Of a stretch of DNA of 61,645 nucleotides, positions 2,993 through 15,391 are shown in pieces (position 1 is the stretch's first letter; every line of letters starts with the position of its first letter). Both the position numbers and the translations under genes were made by a program. The stretch spans positions 1 through 61,645 of the forward strand of contig CBFIJH010000013.1 in the NCBI GenBank assembly GCA_965662895.1. Direction: 5' to 3'. Below the pieces are notes generated by a model. That model worked only from the letters and a program-made list of their open reading frames with translations. It made no database searches and was not told the origin of the DNA. The DNA comes from Candidatus Poseidoniaceae archaeon (GTDB lineage Archaea > Thermoplasmatota > Poseidoniia > Poseidoniales > Poseidoniaceae).

Positions 2993-3826
2993 TCAAACGA
3001 AATCGTCAACATCTTTCTCATGTTCAATGTCACTCGCAAATCCATCTCGGGCATCGTTCATGCCACCAAACATTGCTTGAGCAAACGTAAGGATGTCTGC
3101 TAGCCCTTCTTCGAGTTCACTTGAGAGAGGCGTTAGTCCCGGACTTTGTGCAAATTGTTGCATCAAGCGCAGTTGGTTGATAGCAAATTCTGTTCGCTGA
3201 CCACCGGCTTCATCGTACAATGCCATCTCGAGAATCTCTAAACGTTCGGACCATTCGAGAATCTTCTCCAATTCATCCGGGTCGAGAAGATCACTCTTCG
3301 ATAAGAAATTCTTCGTTGGCAATCCCAGACGGAATTCAACAATCGAGGAAAGAAGCATCTGCGAAACGAAACCAGAAGGTGAGCGCGATAGCATTGGATC
3401 AAACAAGTAAATGATTGCTGACTGTTCACGGCCAAGAACTTCGATAAGATGGTTGCTCGCTTCTCGGAAGGCGAAAAGTTCGACTTGCCCTGGTGTATCA
3501 ACGATCATCATTTCTCCACTAAGCGCATGGAGTTGCTCAGCAACGTCCCCTGCCTGCGAAGCCAAAAGATCGGCGGCCAAAATTTGTGCACCATTCGGTC
3601 CAAGATCGTATTCCATCATTACCTCGGTTAAGGAAATCAAATCACGGACGTCAAATTCAGCGTCATAATGAACTCTCTCTGCACCTGGGTCGAGGTTTAC
3701 TGCAATGACATCCGTTTCGAGGAATCGAGACCATCTCTGGAATGAGGTTACGAGGGAGGATTTTCCAGCTCCTGCAGTTCCTACAACAAACAACACTGGG
3801 GGAGTCCCACTATCTTGGCCGACCAT
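2993..3826 (-). CDS. GPN-loop GTPase
   Basis: GTAGAGKS P-loop, NLDPG, LGPNG, DTPGQ, SKSD. Confidence 0.93.
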   Translation of the reverse strand: MVGQDSGTPPVLFVVGTAGAGKSSLVTSFQRWSRFLETDVIAVNLDPGAERVHYDAEFDVRDLISLTEVMMEYDLGPNGAQILAADLLASQAGDVAEQLHALSGEMMIVDTPGQVELFAFREASNHLIEVLGREQSAIIYLFDPMLSRSPSGFVSQMLLSSIVEFRLGLPTKNFLSKSDLLDPDELEKILEWSERLEILEMALYDEAGGQRTEFAINQLRLMQQFAQSPGLTPLSSELEEGLADILTFAQAMFGGMNDARDGFASDIEHEKDVDDFV

Positions 3827-3956
3827 GATTCATCCTCCAACCCAACGTACATGAACTCAACGCAGGAACGCACGAGTTGAGCAAAACTATGCAACAGAAC
3901 GGTTATGTGCTAGACTTCAATGGAAAGGGTACGGTTCGCCGTATGGAGGAGAGAAA

Positions 3957-6900
3957 ATGACTGACGAAGATACAAACAAACCAGAAGCACCACCGGGAAT
4001 GCCACCTATGCCACCAATGCCACCTATGCCTGAAGCACCGCCAGCTCCACCAGGCATGCCACCTATGCCGCCCATGCCCGAGGCACCTCCATCTCCACCA
4101 GGCATGCCACCAATGCCACCTATGCCAGAAGCTCCGCCAGCTCCTGCTGAAATGCCACCTATGCCTGAAGCACCTCCGGCTCCACCAGGCATGCCACCAA
4201 TGCCACCAATGCCTGAAGCACCACCGGCTCCTCCTGAAATGCCGCCAATGCCACCAATGCCTGAAGCGCCACCGGCTCCTCCTGAAATGCCGCCAATGCC
4301 TGAAACACCAACGGCTCCTCCTGAAATGCCACCAATGCCTGAAGCACCACCGGCTCCACCCGAAATGCCGCCAATGCCTGAAGCACCACCGGCTCCACCC
4401 GAAATGCCGCCAATGCCTGAAGCACCACCGGCTCCACCCGGCCTAGACCTTTTGACTCCAGTCGAATCGCAACCAGATGTTGAAGCGCCTGCTGCTCCGC
4501 CTGGCTTAGATCTCCTCGCTCCATTGCCAACACCTACAGAAGCGCCTGCTGAAGAAGCGCCGGCAGCACCTGTGGGAATGGATTTACTGACCCCACTCAC
4601 ACATCCGGAAGCAGCGCCTGCTGAACAACCTCCTGCTGCAGATCCACTTCTCGCTCCTGTTGCTCCTGCTGAACCTTCTTCTGACCCAGTACTGGCCGCA
4701 GATGAAAATGCGATTCAAGTCGGCGAGATTGCTGGAGCAACCATTCGCTCAAGCGCTGAGGTTGATGAAGTTCCAGGAGACAAACTCGAAGGGACACTTC
4801 ACGAAATCGAAACATCAACACTCTCACCTGACGGCACCGTTGTCAGCCAGAAGATCAAAGGAACTCTAACGGTCAACAACCCATCCGCTGAAGATCGAAT
4901 CTACGACATCGACGTGCTCCTCGACAATGCCGAATCAACAGATATCGGCGGCGACCAAATTTCGGTTGATGAACTGGAAGCCGGGAAAAACTACGTCAAG
5001 AAGTACTCTGTTGCTGACGCACAGATGCTCGTTCTACGGGAATCTCTTGATACCAACCCCGCTCGTGACAATGAGCGATCCTTGAGCATCGCGCTCTCTG
5101 AAGAGGCCGGTACAGTCGCTCTGTCCATCGAAGTTGAGAATGTATCGAACGTCCATCTCAACAATGTCGCCGTAACGAGAAACATTCCAGATTGTCTCAC
5201 CTTCACACACACCGCAAACGCAACCATTGAATCGGGTACGCTCTCTTGGGACGTTGGTTCGATTGCTCCTGGACAAAAGCAAGTCCTTGCAATCGAAGGA
5301 GAAATTCTCGTTACATCAACAAGCACCATCAAAGCAGGTATCGCCAAAGCAACCTATCAAGCAGACTCAACCCTGTCAAATCTAGCCTTCCGTGACCTCG
5401 ATGCTTTTTGTAGAGGATTCACATACATGCGAGTTCGGGAAGACGAACGCCCAGACAACTGGATTTGTCAAACCATTTTCGAAAATCGTTCATCCTTCGC
5501 AGTTGACCTTGTCAAATTGCAAGTTCGAATGAAAGGAAGCGACGATTTGCTCTTCGATGTGAGTGATGTCAAGGAAGACGTCCATCCGCAGGGCAAGTGG
5601 GAGAGCGACGAACGTACCGTCATGGCGACCGCTGAACCGGATTTCACCTACGACCTCTCGTATACCGTTTTGCCACGTGCTACGCGCAAGACTGAGGGAA
5701 CACTCAAACTCGAAGAGAGTTCGTTCACAGTTGTCGATGCTGAGATTTCCAAGGAATACTCAACCGATACACTTCGTTCATTCCGTCAGCAAAGCATTGA
5801 TTCGACGCTTGTTGTGAAAAACACTGGATCAGCAACGATCAATCTCATGCGAATAACGGACGATATCCCTGGCCTCTTTGATGCACCCGACATGGATTCG
5901 CTCACAATTACCGTCAACGGAAAAGAATTGCCAGAAGAGCAATGGAAAGGTGAACTTTCAGCAGGAATTACCCTTGAGAAAGAACATCGTTCACCCGATG
6001 GTGAGGGGCACACAATGACTCTGACTGTGGGAACCAAGGGACCAATCGGATTGAAGCCAGGAAAGACGATGGAAGTTTCCTATCACCTCAATGCTGCAGA
6101 TCCCTCACCAGGCAACGAGCGAGTTGATGCTCCTGCACGCTTCCAGTTCAGTTCCGAACAGTTTGGACCGGTCTGTGTACGTGACGCACCTGAGTCTCCA
6201 TCAATCCGTGTAAGCCACCTGCGACGAAACTTCTCAGCAGGTAAGCAAGCTATTCCGATGGGTGGTAAAGGACGCTATGAAGTCCTCATCCTGTTTGAAA
6301 ACAACGGAGATACTGCACTCCAAGATGTCTTTATTCGAGATGTTATTCCTTCGAACTTTGAAATCAAAGATTGGCACATTCGAGGTGCTGGAGGCGAGAA
6401 GCGAAGCGATGTTGAGATGCTCACAACGGAAACAGATGCTGGAGTTGAAATCACTTGGAAGGTTCCAGTCGTTGACAAGGGCGAACGTCTTGATGTTTCA
6501 TTCGAAATTAAGGGCGAAGGCGAAATCGATGCTGAAGCACTCAACCGGTTCCACGGTGCACACTTTGGTGACGAACTCGAAACCGAAGATGATGCAACCG
6601 AAAATGCTGAAGAAGTTTCTGAGGAAGCAACAGAAACCGAAGAAGAGGCGACCGAAGAAGATTCCGAGGAATCCGAAGAGGAACCTGAAGAAGATACCGA
6701 GGCCGAAAAAGCAGCACCAGCGATTAAATTCCGAGAGGACATCATGCTCCGAGTTATGGAAGAATACGGAATCACGGATCGGGATGCTTTCCTCGAACAC
6801 TCGATGGATTTCGATCTTGACGACAACGGCTACCTGAAGAAGGCTGAATTTGTTGAAGCGGCAAAGGCGTTCACAGCAGATGAAGAAACCGAAGAATCTG

Positions 6901-7064
6901 AGGAAGACTCCACTGAAGACGAAGCCTCGGAAGCGACTGAGGAAGGTTCAGAAGCTGCAGAGGGTGAATCCTCGGAAAATGAGCCGAAGAGTTGTCCGAT
7001 TTGTGGAACATCCAATGCTCATGATGCTTCAGCCTGCATTGCTTGCAACTACACATTCGAGTGA
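3957..7064 (+). CDS. large cytoplasmic protein: Pro-rich repeats, beta-sandwich core (mu-homology/DUF11-like), acidic linkers, EF-hand, C-terminal zinc ribbon
   Basis: 1035-aa ORF with GGAGGA SD; no signal peptide or TM; motifs described under findings. Confidence 0.85.
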   Translation: MTDEDTNKPEAPPGMPPMPPMPPMPEAPPAPPGMPPMPPMPEAPPSPPGMPPMPPMPEAPPAPAEMPPMPEAPPAPPGMPPMPPMPEAPPAPPEMPPMPPMPEAPPAPPEMPPMPETPTAPPEMPPMPEAPPAPPEMPPMPEAPPAPPEMPPMPEAPPAPPGLDLLTPVESQPDVEAPAAPPGLDLLAPLPTPTEAPAEEAPAAPVGMDLLTPLTHPEAAPAEQPPAADPLLAPVAPAEPSSDPVLAADENAIQVGEIAGATIRSSAEVDEVPGDKLEGTLHEIETSTLSPDGTVVSQKIKGTLTVNNPSAEDRIYDIDVLLDNAESTDIGGDQISVDELEAGKNYVKKYSVADAQMLVLRESLDTNPARDNERSLSIALSEEAGTVALSIEVENVSNVHLNNVAVTRNIPDCLTFTHTANATIESGTLSWDVGSIAPGQKQVLAIEGEILVTSTSTIKAGIAKATYQADSTLSNLAFRDLDAFCRGFTYMRVREDERPDNWICQTIFENRSSFAVDLVKLQVRMKGSDDLLFDVSDVKEDVHPQGKWESDERTVMATAEPDFTYDLSYTVLPRATRKTEGTLKLEESSFTVVDAEISKEYSTDTLRSFRQQSIDSTLVVKNTGSATINLMRITDDIPGLFDAPDMDSLTITVNGKELPEEQWKGELSAGITLEKEHRSPDGEGHTMTLTVGTKGPIGLKPGKTMEVSYHLNAADPSPGNERVDAPARFQFSSEQFGPVCVRDAPESPSIRVSHLRRNFSAGKQAIPMGGKGRYEVLILFENNGDTALQDVFIRDVIPSNFEIKDWHIRGAGGEKRSDVEMLTTETDAGVEITWKVPVVDKGERLDVSFEIKGEGEIDAEALNRFHGAHFGDELETEDDATENAEEVSEEATETEEEATEEDSEESEEEPEEDTEAEKAAPAIKFREDIMLRVMEEYGITDRDAFLEHSMDFDLDDNGYLKKAEFVEAAKAFTADEETEESEEDSTEDEASEATEEGSEAAEGESSENEPKSCPICGTSNAHDASACIACNYTFE
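3981..4440 (+). repeat. intragenic tandem repeat, about 11 units of 39/48 bp encoding PEAPPAPP(E/G)MPPM(PPM)
   Basis: Units visible in DNA and translation, with synonymous divergence between copies. Confidence 0.9.
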
Positions 7065-7553
7065 TCAGAAGGGCAACTTCCACTGAGGCCAGTCCTCATT
7101 ATCCGAGGAACTGCTAACGATGACGAGGACATTTCGTTTGGTACTCGCAAGAAGCGTATTGAGGGGCGTCTGAGTTGATGGAGGAATGACACCATCGCGC
7201 AAGTCGACGGCAAGCCAAGCACCCGGGTATTGCGTCAACCAAGCATTGAGTTCTGCTTCGATTCCAATAGGTGGGACGCCTTGACGAACGCTAGCGAGAA
7301 AACCCCAATCTGAAATTGTTCGTCGCTCATCGTCTGTCCACAGAAAAATACGCTCGCTAAACCCTATGCGCTGAAGTTGCTCGAGCGCTTCGGCCTCCGT
7401 GCAGCAAACCGGCCGTCCTGGCATTGGCATTGGCACTGGGTGTTGCCATGTTTTTGTTACATCCAACGGTTCCTTTCGGCGCATGAGACCAAGCACCACA
7501 TCCTCTCGTTTGAATCCAGCGGAAGACCAACCTTCATGACCCTCATGCTGCAC
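7065..7553 (-). CDS. hypothetical protein (start uncertain)
   Basis: Fills the gap between two + strand genes exactly; globular alpha/beta-like composition. Confidence 0.65.
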   Translation of the reverse strand: MQHEGHEGWSSAGFKREDVVLGLMRRKEPLDVTKTWQHPVPMPMPGRPVCCTEAEALEQLQRIGFSERIFLWTDDERRTISDWGFLASVRQGVPPIGIEAELNAWLTQYPGAWLAVDLRDGVIPPSTQTPLNTLLASTKRNVLVIVSSSSDNEDWPQWKLPF

Positions 7554-7562
7554 AGAAGTACC

Positions 7563-8471
7563 ATGGCGAACCGTTCGGCACCTCCACCCCCGCCCCCAAA
7601 TGGTTCAATGATGACCATGTTGCTGGTCATGATTTTGATGACATTTCTCATCATCAACCCAAACATTCGCAATGCCCTGGGAAACATGGCAGATCCCATC
7701 TTGGCACCGGTCCTTCCAGAAACTGAATTTTTCATTATTACAGTTCTCATCCTCGGAACCTTTTCGATGACCTTGAACACCGTTTTGAGAAATTTCTTCG
7801 CCGATCCAATCGAACAAGCGCACATTGGTCACCGCCAATCGCAAGTCAGGAAAATGATGAACGATGGACGTATGAGTCGTGACCCTATACTCGTTGAGAA
7901 AGCGAACACACTTCGAGAACAGATGATGCCTGAACAGTTGAAGGTTCAGATGAGTGCGATGCGACCGATGATGTTCACAATGATTTTCATCATCGGAATC
8001 TTTGCTTGGCTAACAACAGCTGTTGAGACATTTCGCGTCGATTATGTCTCTCTCCCTTGGGCTCCACGTTGGCATTTACTGGATGACAAATTCTTGTTCT
8101 TCCCAGCTTGGATATGTGCGTACATTTGCATGAGTGCACCATTGGGAAGAATTGTTGACCGACATATCAAACTGATTCGATACCGAAATCATCCCGTTGT
8201 TCTTGCAAATGAAAAATTAAGCGAACCCTTGCTTCACCTTGTCGTAAGCGATGATGGTGCAAAGTCAAAACAAGCCAAGCAACGACGGAGTCGTTCCCGT
8301 AAAAATGGTCCGAAGAAGCAAGCAAAACCGACAAAAAATGAAACCTCCGATTCAAAGACAACAACGAATCAGGAGAGCAATGAAGCGTGCCCAGAGTGCA
8401 TGAGCGATGACGTTCAGCGGAAAGGTCCACGGACTCTACGTTGCAACGTATGTTATCACGAATGGGTGTGA
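7563..8471 (+). CDS. EMC3/TMCO1 (DUF106, Oxa1 superfamily) membrane insertase with C-terminal zinc ribbon
   Basis: TM, coiled coil, MRPMMFTMIFIIGIFAW, WI.AY; sits before cmk as is typical; tail CPEC...CNVC. Confidence 0.85.
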   Translation: MANRSAPPPPPPNGSMMTMLLVMILMTFLIINPNIRNALGNMADPILAPVLPETEFFIITVLILGTFSMTLNTVLRNFFADPIEQAHIGHRQSQVRKMMNDGRMSRDPILVEKANTLREQMMPEQLKVQMSAMRPMMFTMIFIIGIFAWLTTAVETFRVDYVSLPWAPRWHLLDDKFLFFPAWICAYICMSAPLGRIVDRHIKLIRYRNHPVVLANEKLSEPLLHLVVSDDGAKSKQAKQRRSRSRKNGPKKQAKPTKNETSDSKTTTNQESNEACPECMSDDVQRKGPRTLRCNVCYHEWV

Positions 8472-8474
8472 GCA

Positions 8475-9017
8475 ATGGTTCTCATTACCATCTCTGGTCA
8501 TCCAGGGAGCGGGACTAGTACACTCGTCAAACTTCTCACCGAGGCACAAGGATGGTCGTCTCTCAATGGAGGAGAATTGTTCCGCCAAGAGGCAAAAAGA
8601 CGTGACATGAGTCTTGCAGAATTTGGACAATTGTGCAAACAGAATCTTGACGTCGATCAGGAACTTGATTTGCTTCTCAAACATGAAATGCTTCGGGATG
8701 ACGACGATGCACCTTCAATTGTTGAAAGTCGCCTCGCTGGCTGGTGGGCGTACCAATTGAATCTCAATATCCCAAGAATTTGGTTGAATGTTGATGAGCG
8801 AGAGCGAGCAAACCGAGTTCAAGCGAGGGAAGGTGGAGAGATTGACAACATTCTTGCTGCAAGTCGAAAAAGGGCGAGTGTTGATGCAGAACGGTTTTTG
8901 GAATTGTACAATCTCCTCCCTGAGCAAAAAGAACCGTATACGCACATACTTGACGCGACCAGCCTAAACCCTCAAGAAGTGCTGGCCCAGGTTCTTGAAA
9001 TAGTGGAGGAATTCTAA
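8475..9017 (+). CDS. cmk: cytidylate kinase (archaeal type)
   Basis: ITISGHPGSGTST, GELFR, VESRLAGW. Confidence 0.92.
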   Translation: MVLITISGHPGSGTSTLVKLLTEAQGWSSLNGGELFRQEAKRRDMSLAEFGQLCKQNLDVDQELDLLLKHEMLRDDDDAPSIVESRLAGWWAYQLNLNIPRIWLNVDERERANRVQAREGGEIDNILAASRKRASVDAERFLELYNLLPEQKEPYTHILDATSLNPQEVLAQVLEIVEEF

Positions 9018-9976
9018 TGCCAGATATCATCGAATTGGACAAGGAAGCAAAGACCGACGATGCTATCGGCGCATACCCAGATCAGAAGACGATTGAACAA
9101 CGTCTTGAATCAGGTTTCTTTCTTCTCGATAAGGGGGCAGGTCCAACATCGCATCAAGTTGCTGCATGGGTGCGAGATATGCTTGAGTTGCCACGTCTTG
9201 GCCATGGTGGAACGCTCGACCCATTTGCAACGGGTGTTCTTCCTCTTATGGCTGGTAAATCCATGCGATTAACAAAACAAATTCTTGAGCATAACAAGAC
9301 CTACATTGCAGTTTTTCGTTTCAAGAACGAAGTTGAGCCTGATGCGTTGAGTACTGTTATGGAACAATTGACTGGACGAATCTACAACGTTCCACCAGAA
9401 ATATCCGCTGTTCGTGTCCAAGTTCGCACAAGAAAGATACATGATTTCTCTCTTCTCGATCAGTCGTCAAAACACATCGTTGCCAGGATTCGATGTGAAG
9501 CCGGAACCTACATTCGTACCATGGCTCGAGACATGGGGTTGCTCTTGGATCAACCGGTTGAACTGAAGGAATTGCGTCGAGAGGATTCAGGTCGGTTCAA
9601 ACTTGAAGACTGCGTTCAACTCCACGAAATTGCGGATGCTATCTGGCTCTGGAAAGAATGCAACGATGGGGAAGCACTCTCTCGTATGCTTCATCCTACT
9701 GAGAAACTTCTCTTTGATTTACCACGCATCGTCGTCAAGGACAGTGCGGTAGCAGCACTCGCACATGGTGCGCCCCTGCTTCGGCCAGGTCTGGTCTCGA
9801 TACCCGATGATTTGTCATCTGGCCAGGATGTCCTCGTAACCAGCATCAAAGGCGAAGCTGTGTGCTTCGTCAAGGTGAACACTGACAGTGAAAGCATCAG
9901 CAAAATGGAACGAGGCGAAATCGCACGCCCATCAGCAGTACTGATGAACGATGATGTCTACCCTCGACGCTGGTGA
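9017..9976 (+). CDS. cbf5: RNA-guided pseudouridine synthase Cbf5 (TruB family, PUA domain)
   Basis: LDKGAGPTSHQV, GHGGTLDP, GTYIRT, VVKDSAV, YPRRW. Confidence 0.94.
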   Translation: MPDIIELDKEAKTDDAIGAYPDQKTIEQRLESGFFLLDKGAGPTSHQVAAWVRDMLELPRLGHGGTLDPFATGVLPLMAGKSMRLTKQILEHNKTYIAVFRFKNEVEPDALSTVMEQLTGRIYNVPPEISAVRVQVRTRKIHDFSLLDQSSKHIVARIRCEAGTYIRTMARDMGLLLDQPVELKELRREDSGRFKLEDCVQLHEIADAIWLWKECNDGEALSRMLHPTEKLLFDLPRIVVKDSAVAALAHGAPLLRPGLVSIPDDLSSGQDVLVTSIKGEAVCFVKVNTDSESISKMERGEIARPSAVLMNDDVYPRRW

Positions 9977-10805: not shown

Positions 10806-13229
10806 TCACTCGTACTTTCTGATTTTTGCAGGAGCAAAGGCTCTGAAGGCTAAGAGAATAAGAACGAGTGCGACGAGGCTGCCCACATAGATGGTCGTCG
10901 TCGAAACTCCCGAACCCTTCTCATCTTGAATCGATACTTCGGGTTCGACAAGCGTCAACGAGACACCCAACTCGTTGTTCGATTCGTTTCGCTCGTCGAT
11001 GACTTGTCCACCATCAACAATTGCATCCACCGTTAAGAAATCGCCAAGAACTGGGGTTTGAAACGAACATTCAGCCACAGCAATCTCACCAGGGCCAAGT
11101 GTTGGAATGCTGGCAATATCTGCTGTTTGCCCGTTGATTGTGCACCGTATTGTAATCATCTCAGCAGATGCAAAACCATAGTTTCCAACATAGACCCGGG
11201 CTTTCAAGAACTGACCGTTTTCTACTTCAGAAGACTCCGTGAAGGCACCATTTGAATCGTCTCCAACCACGAGGTCGGTCACCTCAAGGTCCGGAAGAGA
11301 GACAACGTGCAAATCCAGTACTCGCTCGCTGCATGATGTTGAATCACAAAGTGTGAGGAGGACCGAGGTATAGCCAGGAGTTGGAGCGTCAATTGTCAAC
11401 GTTTCATCTCCAAGATTCACGTCGACCCAAGAACGATTTGAAGTCATGGTCATATCCGAAGCAGCACTATCAACATCGGTCCACGCAAATGGGATCGATG
11501 TTTCAAGGGCATGCTCAACTTGAACCATTGAAGGGAATTCGTTCAAAACAGGTTGATCATCCACAGATGCAACAAAAACATTGAAGATTTCCGTATGCAT
11601 GTTCCCTGATGCATCGGAAACGGTCATGGTGATTTGAGAAGCACCGGATTGTTCAGAGATTAAGGAGATACGAACCTCGCCTTGATCAAGTGAAACATCA
11701 ACGATGTCAGGTTGAGAATTTTCGAAATTCACAACAAGGTCCTCAGCAAGACCACGATCGTCCGTGCAACGCGTAAGAAGAGGTACAAACAACCCACCTC
11801 CATCCTCCGTGAGATATTGATCTCCAATAAGCTGGCAAGTCGGATCTTCATCGTACAAAATATCGTACCCACCATTCATTTCTATAGAATTAATTTCCAA
11901 GGCAGTCGTGCTCGCACTCCCATCGGAATCCCACGTGAACCACGTCTTGATGGTCACCTCGACATCCGTGGTTGGCTCTAAAAATGCATGACCAATCGGA
12001 ATTTGATGTGAGAATTGTCCTAATGCAACAGGAAGATTGGCGACTGTGACATCGTTCACAGTAATGGTCCATCGAGAGAGAGTGGCATTGATTCCCAAGG
12101 CATCACCGTAAATTCTCCCATTGACGGTTAACGTTGGATCGTTCACATCAATATGCACCGACACAATGCAAGCAACATCTGTGGAAAGCCGTACTTGGAC
12201 AAATCCAACATCTGGCAAGACTTCTCCATCATAGGATGAAAAACTGCTAAATGATTCCCCATCCGTTGAAGTTGCATATTGAACACTCACGTTTCCTTCA
12301 GTTCCTGTCGTATTCACAGTGTAATGAATTCGGCCGAACGATTGTTCGGGTGGAACCGCAACAGGCTCACTCGTCCAAGTTCCAATCGTTTGTCCGTCAA
12401 TCGACTCTAAACCACAGATTGACAAACCAATTCCGTTGTAATCACCATAGTTCAGGTCAAGATCGAGCACCGGGAGGTCATGACCAGTTGCGATCGATGT
12501 TGCACGGCCTACTTCACCACCGTACCATGGCGTCTCCATTGTCACCTCAATACCAATGGCGTCGAGTTCCAATCGAGCATCATCCGTTTGGCCGACGGAT
12601 ACATAATCCATTGTGAATTTGGATGTTTCCAACATCGACCATGTCCATGATTCAATGCTTGATACGTCGAGGCTGAACGCGGTTCCGTTGATGTAATCAA
12701 TCGGACCACCAGTGTTTGACCAGGTGCGAAGAATTTCTGATCCATTGGACCAATCCATGGATAGTCGTACCGAATCGATCAACAATGCATCTGTAATCTT
12801 GAATGCAAGAACGACCCGAACCTCCGTGATGACATATTGTGTCGATGAGGTGACATCGAAGTTTTGAACGCTCATTACAGGTCCTGTCGACCACATGAAC
12901 AAACCGTCAGGCGCACCGATGACATTCTCAGATTCAGAAGGACTCGTCAACCCCCAATAGGTGAGCATGTCCGTGTTTTGCGGTCGCTGATGAACCATAG
13001 TAATTCGTTGATCGGCGACCATCGATTCCGTGTAATCAGCTGCATCGGATGTGAACGATGTTGTAGCATCTGTTGACCAAAGATTCGGATTTGTCAAGTC
13101 GCCTTGTGGAAACAGATCGTAGTCTGAAGTCGCATACACAGAACGTGCAGAAGCAGTCGACAAGAAGGGTGAACAAACCGCGAACCCCATGATAAAAAAT
13201 AAGAATGTTGCATTCCACTTCCGTCGCAT
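10806..13229 (-). CDS. secreted/surface protein with cadherin-like and CARDB domains and C-terminal TM anchor
   Basis: Signal peptide MRRKWNATFLFF..., VDDQPV, LPDLEV...VIDERNESNN, hydrophobic C-terminus. Confidence 0.8.
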   Translation of the reverse strand: MRRKWNATFLFFIMGFAVCSPFLSTASARSVYATSDYDLFPQGDLTNPNLWSTDATTSFTSDAADYTESMVADQRITMVHQRPQNTDMLTYWGLTSPSESENVIGAPDGLFMWSTGPVMSVQNFDVTSSTQYVITEVRVVLAFKITDALLIDSVRLSMDWSNGSEILRTWSNTGGPIDYINGTAFSLDVSSIESWTWSMLETSKFTMDYVSVGQTDDARLELDAIGIEVTMETPWYGGEVGRATSIATGHDLPVLDLDLNYGDYNGIGLSICGLESIDGQTIGTWTSEPVAVPPEQSFGRIHYTVNTTGTEGNVSVQYATSTDGESFSSFSSYDGEVLPDVGFVQVRLSTDVACIVSVHIDVNDPTLTVNGRIYGDALGINATLSRWTITVNDVTVANLPVALGQFSHQIPIGHAFLEPTTDVEVTIKTWFTWDSDGSASTTALEINSIEMNGGYDILYDEDPTCQLIGDQYLTEDGGGLFVPLLTRCTDDRGLAEDLVVNFENSQPDIVDVSLDQGEVRISLISEQSGASQITMTVSDASGNMHTEIFNVFVASVDDQPVLNEFPSMVQVEHALETSIPFAWTDVDSAASDMTMTSNRSWVDVNLGDETLTIDAPTPGYTSVLLTLCDSTSCSERVLDLHVVSLPDLEVTDLVVGDDSNGAFTESSEVENGQFLKARVYVGNYGFASAEMITIRCTINGQTADIASIPTLGPGEIAVAECSFQTPVLGDFLTVDAIVDGGQVIDERNESNNELGVSLTLVEPEVSIQDEKGSGVSTTTIYVGSLVALVLILLAFRAFAPAKIRKYE

Positions 13230-13324
13230 GAGCATTGGAGCGGGTGGTACCATTTCAAACAACGGGTTTCTTGAACCAACGACGTATTGTTGAAATACCA
13301 CGCCCATGACGGACAACTCCCCAT

Positions 13325-14244: not shown

Positions 14245-14338
14245 GGTTGGTTGTCAATCCCCTGCTTTTTGAAGACATCCACGTTTGAAGCTCGTTTGAC
14301 GCAACACGTTGAAGAAGACCAAGGACAACCACGACTCA

Positions 14339-15391
14339 ATGGGTGAAGCCGCTTCGTCGAAAGCAAGCGATGACATGAGTTGGGGTGAAGTCGCTCAACT
14401 CGGTCTTCGCTACGGTAAAATCCCACTTGCTCTTGTTGCTGTGGAAGCATTGTACTGGTTCATTACACAACCTTCCGACACACTCGCCTTCATTCAGGTC
14501 ACTGAGGCGTACGTTTGGAACGAGGTGACACAACTGATGTTTGGTGAAGGCGCCTCGACTTTGAGTACACACAACGGTTGGATGACGAGGATTGATTTCT
14601 ATCATGAATCGTTTCCTGGTCCATTGGATTCGGTTGGCCTCTACGTATCCGATGAATGTGCAGGCGTTCACGAGATGATCTTCCTCTCAACACTGGTCCT
14701 CATGACGGATGGCGTCACACAACGAGAGAAATTCAAGGCTGTTGCCGTTCTATGTGGGATTGTCTATGTGTTGAACATTGTACGTCTTGTTGCATTTTAT
14801 CCAATTGCAGTTGAGGGATGCCTTGCAAATCCAAACCAGCCTGATTGTCTGAATGGGATGTGGAATTTCCACACCTTCGTGTACCAATGGGGGTTCCTTG
14901 TTGTTCTGTTGATCATGTGGCTGGTTTGGTTTCGATATGTTGGGGGTGCATCGAGAACAATGAAGGCATCCCAAGAAGAAAAGGAACAATGGCGAATTGT
15001 TCTTCGAAAGCGTTGGGAAAACAAACACGTTGCTTTCGTTGGCCTCATGGTCGCATTTTTCGGAATCGCATGGTTCTGGGTGGAAGGGAATTCAACAGCC
15101 ATGGATGCCAAGAATGTGATCGACTTCTGTGCATTCAGTGATTTAACAACACCAAACTGTTACGAGGCCCAAAATACATGGGACAATGCCATCCAGGGCG
15201 CATGGTCGTTCGCAGTTCTCGGACTTCTCATAGGCACACTTGGATTGTATGAAATTGAACGAAAAGATGAGAGCGGTCAATGGCCGACAAGAGCAATCGA
15301 GACAAAACCAAATGTTGCCGAATCAAAGAGTGTGAAACAAAAGCCACAAGGCTCTTGGAGAAAGCGAAATTTGAATGCAGAAGAAGAGTAA
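14339..15391 (+). CDS. archaeosortase/exosortase family membrane transpeptidase
   Basis: Catalytic triad pattern VSDECAG, LNIVR, FH in a multi-TM protein. Confidence 0.85.
   Translation: MGEAASSKASDDMSWGEVAQLGLRYGKIPLALVAVEALYWFITQPSDTLAFIQVTEAYVWNEVTQLMFGEGASTLSTHNGWMTRIDFYHESFPGPLDSVGLYVSDECAGVHEMIFLSTLVLMTDGVTQREKFKAVAVLCGIVYVLNIVRLVAFYPIAVEGCLANPNQPDCLNGMWNFHTFVYQWGFLVVLLIMWLVWFRYVGGASRTMKASQEEKEQWRIVLRKRWENKHVAFVGLMVAFFGIAWFWVEGNSTAMDAKNVIDFCAFSDLTTPNCYEAQNTWDNAIQGAWSFAVLGLLIGTLGLYEIERKDESGQWPTRAIETKPNVAESKSVKQKPQGSWRKRNLNAEEE

Follow-up and report, generated by a model that had tools for sequence, protein, structure and literature searches.

The window analysed here is a stretch of 61,645 nucleotides from a Candidatus Poseidoniaceae archaeon (GenBank assembly GCA_965662895.1, contig CBFIJH010000013.1, forward strand). 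It carries a gene for a 1035-residue protein whose core contains a mu-homology domain (MHD), the hallmark cargo-recognition module of eukaryotic vesicle coats, followed by two immunoglobulin-like (Ig) domains. The gene and its parts, with residue numbers of the protein, are:

3957..7064 (+): whole MHD gene (product P0001), encoding a cytoplasmic multidomain protein of 1035 amino acids (aa)
3957..4436 (+): residues 1-160, Pro-rich tandem repeats (PPMPPMPEAPPAPPE/G), predicted to be disordered; 82 of the 160 residues are Pro
4437..4769 (+): residues 161-271, acidic Pro/Ala linker in which a short LL motif occurs four times
4770..5720 (+): residues 272-588, MHD, both subdomains
5073..5381 (+): residues ~373-475, MHD subdomain B, the DUF11-matching stretch; bounds approximate, from the strand pattern of the model
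5730..6224 (+): residues ~592-756, second domain, a pilin/CnaB-like Ig sandwich with a weak Pfam DUF7507 match
6225..6551 (+): residues ~757-865, third domain, DUF11-type Ig, from TIGR01451 at 780-802, a weak DUF7619 match and the model strands
6552..6980 (+): residues 866-1008, acidic tail around a helical EF-hand-like module
6813-6848 (+): residues 953-964, canonical 12-residue EF-hand loop DLDDNGYLKKAE, from its sequence pattern
6981..7061 (+): residues 1009-1035, putative zinc ribbon at the C-terminus, C-x2-C-x3-N-x6-C-x2-C (1013-1030)

An earlier note, made from the DNA alone, had described an open reading frame (ORF) of 1035 aa without signal peptide or transmembrane segment, and with an all-beta core recalling the MHD. 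Both the sequence and a predicted model agree with this description, and the peptides quoted in that note all lie where it placed them, its range 4797-6520 corresponding to residues 281-855. No signal peptide or transmembrane segment was found in the window protein, nor any hydrophobic segment, the top 19-residue Kyte-Doolittle mean being 1.02; a cytoplasmic location is strongly supported. The same grade applies to a folded, all-beta core of the form MHD-Ig-Ig at residues ~272-865. Judging from the sequence, the Poseidoniales form adds to this core a Pro-rich, disordered N-terminus with D-x-LL-x-P motifs, an EF-hand loop and a zinc ribbon.

Based on profile comparison, the strongest Pfam match on the window protein is DUF11 (PF01345; residues 385-475; E value 6.5e-11; 43 bits, cut-off 24.6). 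DUF7507 and a weak DUF7619 are also present, and NCBIfam TIGR01451 scores 31.8 bits (cut-off 24) at residues 780-802. The Pfam MHD profile (PF00928) is matched by other members of the family. Eight of 20 distant homologues match it at E<=0.01; one of them, P0154, exceeds the curated cut-off (35.2 versus 31.6 bits), and the match of another distant homologue, P0146, spans profile positions 12-234 of 259. PF00928 is found at the same threshold in 29 of a larger set of 72 members (best E value 1.9e-10), and DUF11 in 68 of them. The window core is tied to the PF00928-matching members over its full length by phmmer (E values 1e-25 to 1e-85). When family profiles were compared with PDB sequences, adaptor chains made up 23 of the 27 rows at E<=1, with AP-3 mu at the top (E value 0.0024-0.018), followed by AP-2 mu, AP-4 mu, delta-COP and the gamma-adaptin ear. 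These matches are colinear, the first strands corresponding to the start of the delta-COP/AP-4 MHD and the middle to subdomain B, a stretch that aligns to AP-3 mu 120-240 and AP-2 mu 299-404. The 'LxW..G' and 'STLS' strands singled out in the earlier note are segments that HMMER aligns to the adaptor chains. Six generic multi-DUF11 proteins of the same phylum, examined as a control, yielded only one faint PF00928 match (17.6 bits; E value 0.0025). DUF11 is therefore distantly similar to MHD subdomain B in general, and the present family stands far closer to the MHD.

The results for the remaining domains are weaker. The third domain shows slight profile similarity to the gamma-adaptin ear (1gyv; E value 0.05-0.1), and the second (profile positions 356-428) weakly matches 9rhp_A, 'Archaeal bundling protein X' (E value 0.12), a possible relative. 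The profile of a small Asgard subfamily retrieved just two PDB rows, which is chance level. Within the family, N39 and P292 are invariant and E14, G33, Y81, E93 and W162 nearly so (core numbering; the protein residue is core plus 269). Many homologues carry the precomputed Pfam label PF27408.1 beside DUF11, and P0154 and P0272 are also labelled PF00928; PF27408 may already describe part of the MHD-Ig-Ig family. HEAT repeats were suspected by eye in the N-termini of the Asgard paralogues P0152, P0179, P0246 and P0266, and were set aside because no Pfam match was obtained there at E<=0.01.

The structure of the core was predicted with AlphaFold2, employing no templates and archaeal-only alignments. 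The 596-aa core was modelled with a mean pLDDT of 95.4 and a pTM of 0.82, and core residues 1-325 with 97.0 and 0.90, respectively. In a Foldseek search with the whole core, long multi-Ig proteins such as integrins and adhesins lead the list with TM scores of 0.1-0.3 and root-mean-square deviations (rmsd) of 13-40 Å, and mu2 appears at rank 45. This ranking is misleading, and domain-level or VIA-align searches are required. A VIA-align scan of 48,161 chains, independent of Foldseek, placed AP2, AP4 and AP3 mu in the top four positions for the whole-core model, with delta-COP, SGIP1, AP1 mu and Syp1 interleaved with pilin matches to the second domain. For the domain model the top ten are all MHDs (AP2/AP4/AP3/AP1 mu, bovine and yeast delta-COP, SGIP1 and Syp1), and MHDs alone align over 204-223 residues at ~3 Å across both subdomains, single sandwiches covering ~105-130 residues. 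Domain-level Foldseek returned MHD chains in 37 of the 39 rows shown (best E value 5.2e-11; target-normalised TM 0.61-0.70).

The hallmark of the MHD, two sandwich subdomains with B inserted in A that superpose as a whole domain, is, judging by the whole-domain superposition, present in the predicted model, and the outcome that the earlier note named as fatal to its proposal, namely tandem Ig domains with no interleaved topology and no profile match, was not what these comparisons and the PF00928 scores of the family returned. The resemblance to an MHD stands, confined to residues 272-588. The 'second unit' that had been likened to part of a delta-COP MHD is instead a separate DUF11 Ig domain, lying beyond the pilin-like Ig domain. 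With high confidence, the model predicts a complete MHD fold in the Poseidoniales protein, both subdomains being in the eukaryotic arrangement. There is strong support for this domain being a true relative of the AP mu C-terminal domain, delta-COP and the muniscins, and its subdomain B still bears the sequence signature of the prokaryotic DUF11 Ig repeat.

The regions flanking the core vary among lineages. The Pro-rich part is tandem in the DNA too, with arrays at 3999-4442 of periods 39, 48 and 87, and orthologues differ in repeat copy number. In the linker, the motif [DE]-x(0,1)-LL-[ATGS]-[PA] starts at residues 164, 185, 209 and 229 (window 4446-4658). Among the 133 closest proteins, which are not mutually independent, 117 have at least two copies of [DE]-[ALP]?-LL-[ATGS]-[PA] in their N-terminal region, and past the start of the core the motif is absent from all 133. 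The loop DLDDNGYLKKAE fits D-x-[DN]-x-[DNG]-G-x-[ILV]-x3-E, a pattern seen in 120 of them. A four-Cys C-terminal ribbon is found in 124 by a looser pattern and in 72 with strict spacing. The corresponding Pfam matches on the window protein are weak, both for EF-hand_7/8 (E value 0.2-0.4) and for Zn_ribbon_RanBP (E value 0.068; 12.9 bits against a cut-off of 27). The eukaryotic RanBP2-type consensus has an upstream Trp that is missing in this ribbon. More distant Poseidoniales orthologues retain the polyproline repeats together with reworded LL motifs (ADALLAPP, ADPLLAPP, IDLLGPL). In f18, a family of another class of Thermoplasmatota, the proteins lack both arms. Opposite the Pro-rich repeats, two antisense Gly-rich ORFs are present, 3917-4600 (-) of 227 aa and 4159-4533 (-) of 124 aa, and almost certainly represent shadow frames of the CCN-rich coding strand rather than genes.

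A word-indexed search retrieved 588 relatives, of which the best 120 are 67-99% identical and, where named, are 'Candidatus Poseidoniaceae' or 'Thermoplasmatota' proteins from metagenome-assembled genomes (MAGs), all annotated as hypothetical. An exhaustive phmmer search over 1.84 billion representatives gave 417 homologues at E<=1e-3 and 81 at E<=1e-30. Many of these are 22-30% identical along the entire 590-aa core and only ~590-720 aa long, and nearly all homologues listed lack a hydrophobic N-terminus (exceptions P0174, P0218 and P0258), so the 590-aa core is a conserved cytoplasmic unit. The window's genome, 92% complete, has one copy. Full-length matches (E<1e-99) were obtained in 61 of 201 Thermoplasmatota genomes, distributed by family as follows:

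f1 (the window's family): 22 of 22 genomes, the window's genome counted
f2 (sister family): 13 of 14 genomes
f18 (family of another class): 23 of 24 genomes
f10, f42 and f44: one genome each
f3 (other family of the same class): 0 of 2 genomes

A single-copy core is accordingly present in 35 of the 36 Poseidoniales genomes sampled, and a further 26 Thermoplasmatota genomes have short DUF11-type matches only. The f44 and f42 copies come from fragmented Thermoplasmatota bins (G162 and G190, respectively) of 5.0-5.5 Mb with 3-7% contamination. The G190 copy scores within the range of f18 proteins, and the G162 copy (L003), on a 3.8-kb contig, forms a separate branch within the Thermoplasmatota clade; bin contamination is a possible source of both.

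Of the 121 genomes in the Asgard sample, 100 carry a match at E<=1e-40, often as paralogues. A subfamily-alignment search placed homologues in Sigynarchaeum, Helarchaeota, Promethearchaeia and Promethearchaeota MAGs (seven named Asgard MAG loci), and searches of five of those genomes revealed two to six places each at E<=1e-10, with at least one full-length copy in all five. The nearest ESM Atlas clusters, taken as a lead only, are labelled Promethearchaeota, Thermoplasmatota and Thorarchaeota. The taxonomy given here is based on the seven named loci, on coded genome groups and on the Atlas cluster labels. This survey of homologues, which the earlier note had proposed, shows the core to be widespread in Poseidoniales and Asgard genomes, and gives strong support to an archaeal MHD-Ig-Ig family that spans Poseidoniales, a second Thermoplasmatota family and most Asgard genomes. 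Many f18 and Asgard matches were flagged with one internal TGA, TAA or TAG; since the open frames roughly equal the matches in length, these are probably alignments running beyond the stop codon.

A quick maximum-likelihood tree (LG+G4, unrooted) was built from 15 Thermoplasmatota sequences and 40 of 131 Asgard places, the latter picked without internal stops and spanning the score range. Every Thermoplasmatota sequence falls on one side of a single branch (SH-aLRT 92), and with midpoint rooting the Thermoplasmatota are sister to one Asgard paralogue clade (98). Such a tree would fit either one old transfer from Asgard archaea or an old vertical gene with Asgard duplications and, because it is unrooted, does not choose between them.

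The genes around the MHD gene in the window are:

2993..3826 (-): GPN-loop GTPase (ATP_bind_1), divergent neighbour
7377..9976 (+): DUF106/EMC3-TMCO1-like insertase, cytidylate kinase and Cbf5/TruB, downstream

In all five Poseidoniales loci checked, which belong to two families, the MHD gene lies between the divergent GTPase and a same-strand DUF106 gene, with Cbf5 past DUF106; an intervening kinase ORF was detected in three. The gap between the MHD gene and DUF106 is ~80-120 nt in two of these loci, and three have an extra ORF in between (twice a TPR gene, once an unannotated ORF of 139 aa). In the window, a 162-aa ORF at 7065-7553 (-) without Pfam match occupies this gap, and a TPR protein is found at the matching position in two f2 loci (L018, 3696-4574 +; L019, 7289-8140 -). 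The listed start of the DUF106 ORF (7377) overlaps the 162-aa ORF and is probably too early. None of the GTPase, DUF106, kinase or Cbf5 neighbours was found in five other Thermoplasmatota loci (four f18, one f10), where the neighbours include NFACT, PcrB and PfkB in the one f18 locus annotated and AdoHcy hydrolase and a deaminase in the f10 locus. Neither this synteny nor any recurring neighbour was seen across four Asgard loci. With conservation confined to Poseidoniales, gene neighbourhood was dropped as a functional clue.

Near different Asgard paralogues, a Ras/Arf-like GTPase, a Roadblock protein and a BBS7-like propeller occur once each. The GTPase (L011, 2467-3609) has a 210-aa N-terminal extension and lies between two full-length paralogues ~7 kb apart on one contig of a Candidatus Sigynarchaeum MAG (G201:C8). 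The Roadblock/LC7 protein (L015, 11735-12196, -) is 1.4 kb from a paralogue in a Promethearchaeota MAG. The propeller (L017, 9775-11277, +), in a Promethearchaeota MAG, is directly downstream of an MHD-Ig-Ig paralogue (7260-9464 +) and matches the BBS7 propeller (E value 1.2e-23) and BBS2_Mid, at this single locus. Elsewhere in the window, an 836-aa CARDB-domain protein (10806-13316, -) adjoins cbf5, and proteins related to it (28-44% identity) sit beside this gene cluster in each of the five Poseidoniales loci. A 360-aa ORF at 14309-15391 (+) has a sub-threshold match to 7tm_1, the rhodopsin-family GPCR profile (E value 6.4e-4; 19.7 versus 30.5 bits), and may encode a multi-pass membrane protein.

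The best overall explanation of these results is, in all likelihood, that the window protein belongs to an archaeal MHD-Ig-Ig family whose MHD is related to that of eukaryotic coat adaptors. Several observations speak against it. PF00928 finds no match on the window protein or its residues 281-854 even at E<=10, and phmmer of the protein against all PDB sequences returned none; the MHD homology accordingly rests on the family profile and the predicted structure. The PDB profile E values are modest (0.0024-0.02), most PF00928 matches span only subdomain B (positions ~122-240), which is the DUF11-like part, and the structural alignments have 11-16% identity. Of the 316 residues in the MHD span, about 95 are unaligned, which implies extra elements inside the domain, and AlphaFold training included MHD structures. 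Against an adaptor role in particular, the MHD is strongly acidic (net charge -24; subdomain B -6), so that its composition does not suggest a mu2-like basic lipid patch. No longin domain precedes the MHD, the N-terminus being Pro-rich and disordered, and Adaptin_N, Arf-family and Robl_LC7 gave no match at E<=0.01 in the window's genome. The neighbourhood conserved within Poseidoniales consists of housekeeping genes. Searches of the same genome with Clat_adaptor_s and six-frame PF00928 were uninformative, as their controls were silent too. Against this background, it could be argued that the protein is a mere tandem array of DUF11/Ig repeats, with its MHD likeness due to beta-sandwich convergence or to predictor bias. 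On the single sequence alone the earlier note's caveat about generic DUF11 domains would indeed prevail, with DUF11 the top Pfam match and PF00928 silent, one of the six generic DUF11 proteins also giving a faint PF00928 match, and integrins and adhesins leading the whole-model Foldseek list. It is overturned by the family profiles and the structure comparison: those multi-Ig matches superpose poorly, both subdomains align with MHDs only, family members surpass the curated PF00928 cut-off, and the PDB profile matches are almost exclusively to AP mu and delta-COP, in colinear order. We therefore regard a plain repeat protein as very improbable. Export by non-classical secretion, which would place the protein on the surface like most DUF11 proteins, has in its favour that DUF11, DUF7507 and CnaB-like Ig domains typically occur in cell-surface proteins; given the missing signal peptide or transmembrane segment in the window protein and nearly all homologues listed, the putative Cys4 zinc ribbon and EF-hand, and an N-terminus that is no leader but very acidic, Pro-rich and of low complexity, its probability is close to negligible.

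The role of an MHD-Ig-Ig protein is a separate matter. We tentatively suggest, at somewhat less than even confidence, a stand-alone adaptor or scaffold in the style of the muniscins or stonins, and not part of an AP-like tetramer. The MHD of such a protein would have short peptide motifs as ligands, such as those in the cytosolic tails of membrane proteins. The disordered N-terminal arm, with its many copies of PPMP-type polyproline and D-x-LL-x-P, would recruit or cluster partners, and the C-terminal EF-hand and zinc ribbon might act as regulatory or docking modules under Ca2+-dependent or partner-dependent control. The D-LL motifs may be likened to eukaryotic clathrin-box or DLL motifs, though clathrin itself is absent here. 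A complex prediction of the core with its own residues 150-245 scored 0.02; run without controls, it has no bearing on D-x-LL-x-P binding. Alternatively, the MHD fold would be real and the role that of some other cytoplasmic scaffold, for example in membrane-protein biogenesis with DUF106 and the GPN GTPase, or in cell shape or division. The gene order retained in five of five Poseidoniales loci, the single-copy, nearly universal occurrence expected for a housekeeping function, and the failure of the Adaptin_N, Arf and Robl_LC7 searches to detect other coat components in the window's genome all favour this possibility. The synteny is not seen, however, in the five other Thermoplasmatota or four Asgard loci and may for that reason merely reflect slow rearrangement in one order, and an extra ORF separates the MHD gene from DUF106 in three of the five Poseidoniales loci; on balance, we consider such a role, the main alternative on function, somewhat unlikely.

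A further and rather doubtful proposal joins origin and function. The MHD might have been born in archaea by insertion of a DUF11-type Ig domain into a second beta-sandwich, the MHD-Ig-Ig form being ancestral to the MHDs of mu, delta-COP and the muniscins, and the single-copy Poseidoniales protein being a self-contained, Ca2+-regulated, multivalent cargo/membrane adaptor whose arm serves in the manner of clathrin-box or DLL motifs. If true, coat-adaptor logic would be at work in an abundant marine archaeon outside Asgard, Poseidoniales ranking among the archaeal groups of highest abundance in surface ocean waters. The present analysis adds evidence that the family is close to universal in Asgard archaea and that subdomain B is DUF11-derived; the DUF11 signature of subdomain B offers a concrete, testable route to the origin of the MHD fold. 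Because the MHD-Ig-Ig core occurs in about five of six sampled Asgard genomes, it is a core archaeal gene and no rarity. The Poseidoniales architecture of motif-rich disordered arms and putative EF-hand and zinc-ribbon modules resembles eukaryotic endocytic scaffolds, in a setting where other coat parts were not found, and a pre-coat role of the MHD becomes experimentally approachable with recombinant protein.

Among known systems, the AP mu subunits (PF00928, Adap_comp_sub; AP2 mu2, 5wrk and 1bw8; AP3 mu3A, 4ikn; AP4 mu4, 3l81) have the MHD in common with the archaeal protein. The latter differs in lacking the N-terminal longin domain, in the absence of an Adaptin_N match from the window's genome, and in having the ~95 extra residues in its MHD span and two Ig domains after it; its MHD is acidic, with no obvious basic patch from composition. 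The monomeric MHD proteins comprise the muniscins (FCHo, SGIP1, Syp1), the stonins and the delta-COP MHD (5awr, 3g9h, 4o8q, 5fjw). The archaeal protein differs from these in having no F-BAR or other membrane-binding N-terminal domain, and in its additional Ig domains and putative EF-hand and zinc ribbon. Eps15-like DPF partners are not known in archaea. DUF11/TIGR01451 surface repeats share with the family the match in MHD subdomain B and in the third domain, whereas the generic DUF11 protein is long and repetitive, is in most cases exported (a signal anchor is present in P0174), and lacks the interleaved two-subdomain arrangement.

Full-text searches found no literature linking the MHD to non-Asgard archaea; supplementary tables lay outside their coverage, so an earlier listing is possible. 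In the main text of two structure-based Asgard surveys (PMC12962969; 10.64898/2026.10.28.762692), a term search gave no mention of the MHD. Eme et al. 2023 (PMC10307638) report the Pfam mu C-terminal domain in Asgard archaea, as one of five adaptor domains described as 'sparsely distributed' and 'not fused to each other'. The Asgard proteins concerned probably belong to the family described here, as PF00928-passing distant homologues map to Sigynarchaeum, Helarchaeota and Promethearchaeia MAGs. Compared with the distribution given there, the full core is seen here in 100 of 121 Asgard genomes and in Thermoplasmatota as well: the domain is a known one, and the architecture and lineage in which it occurs are new.

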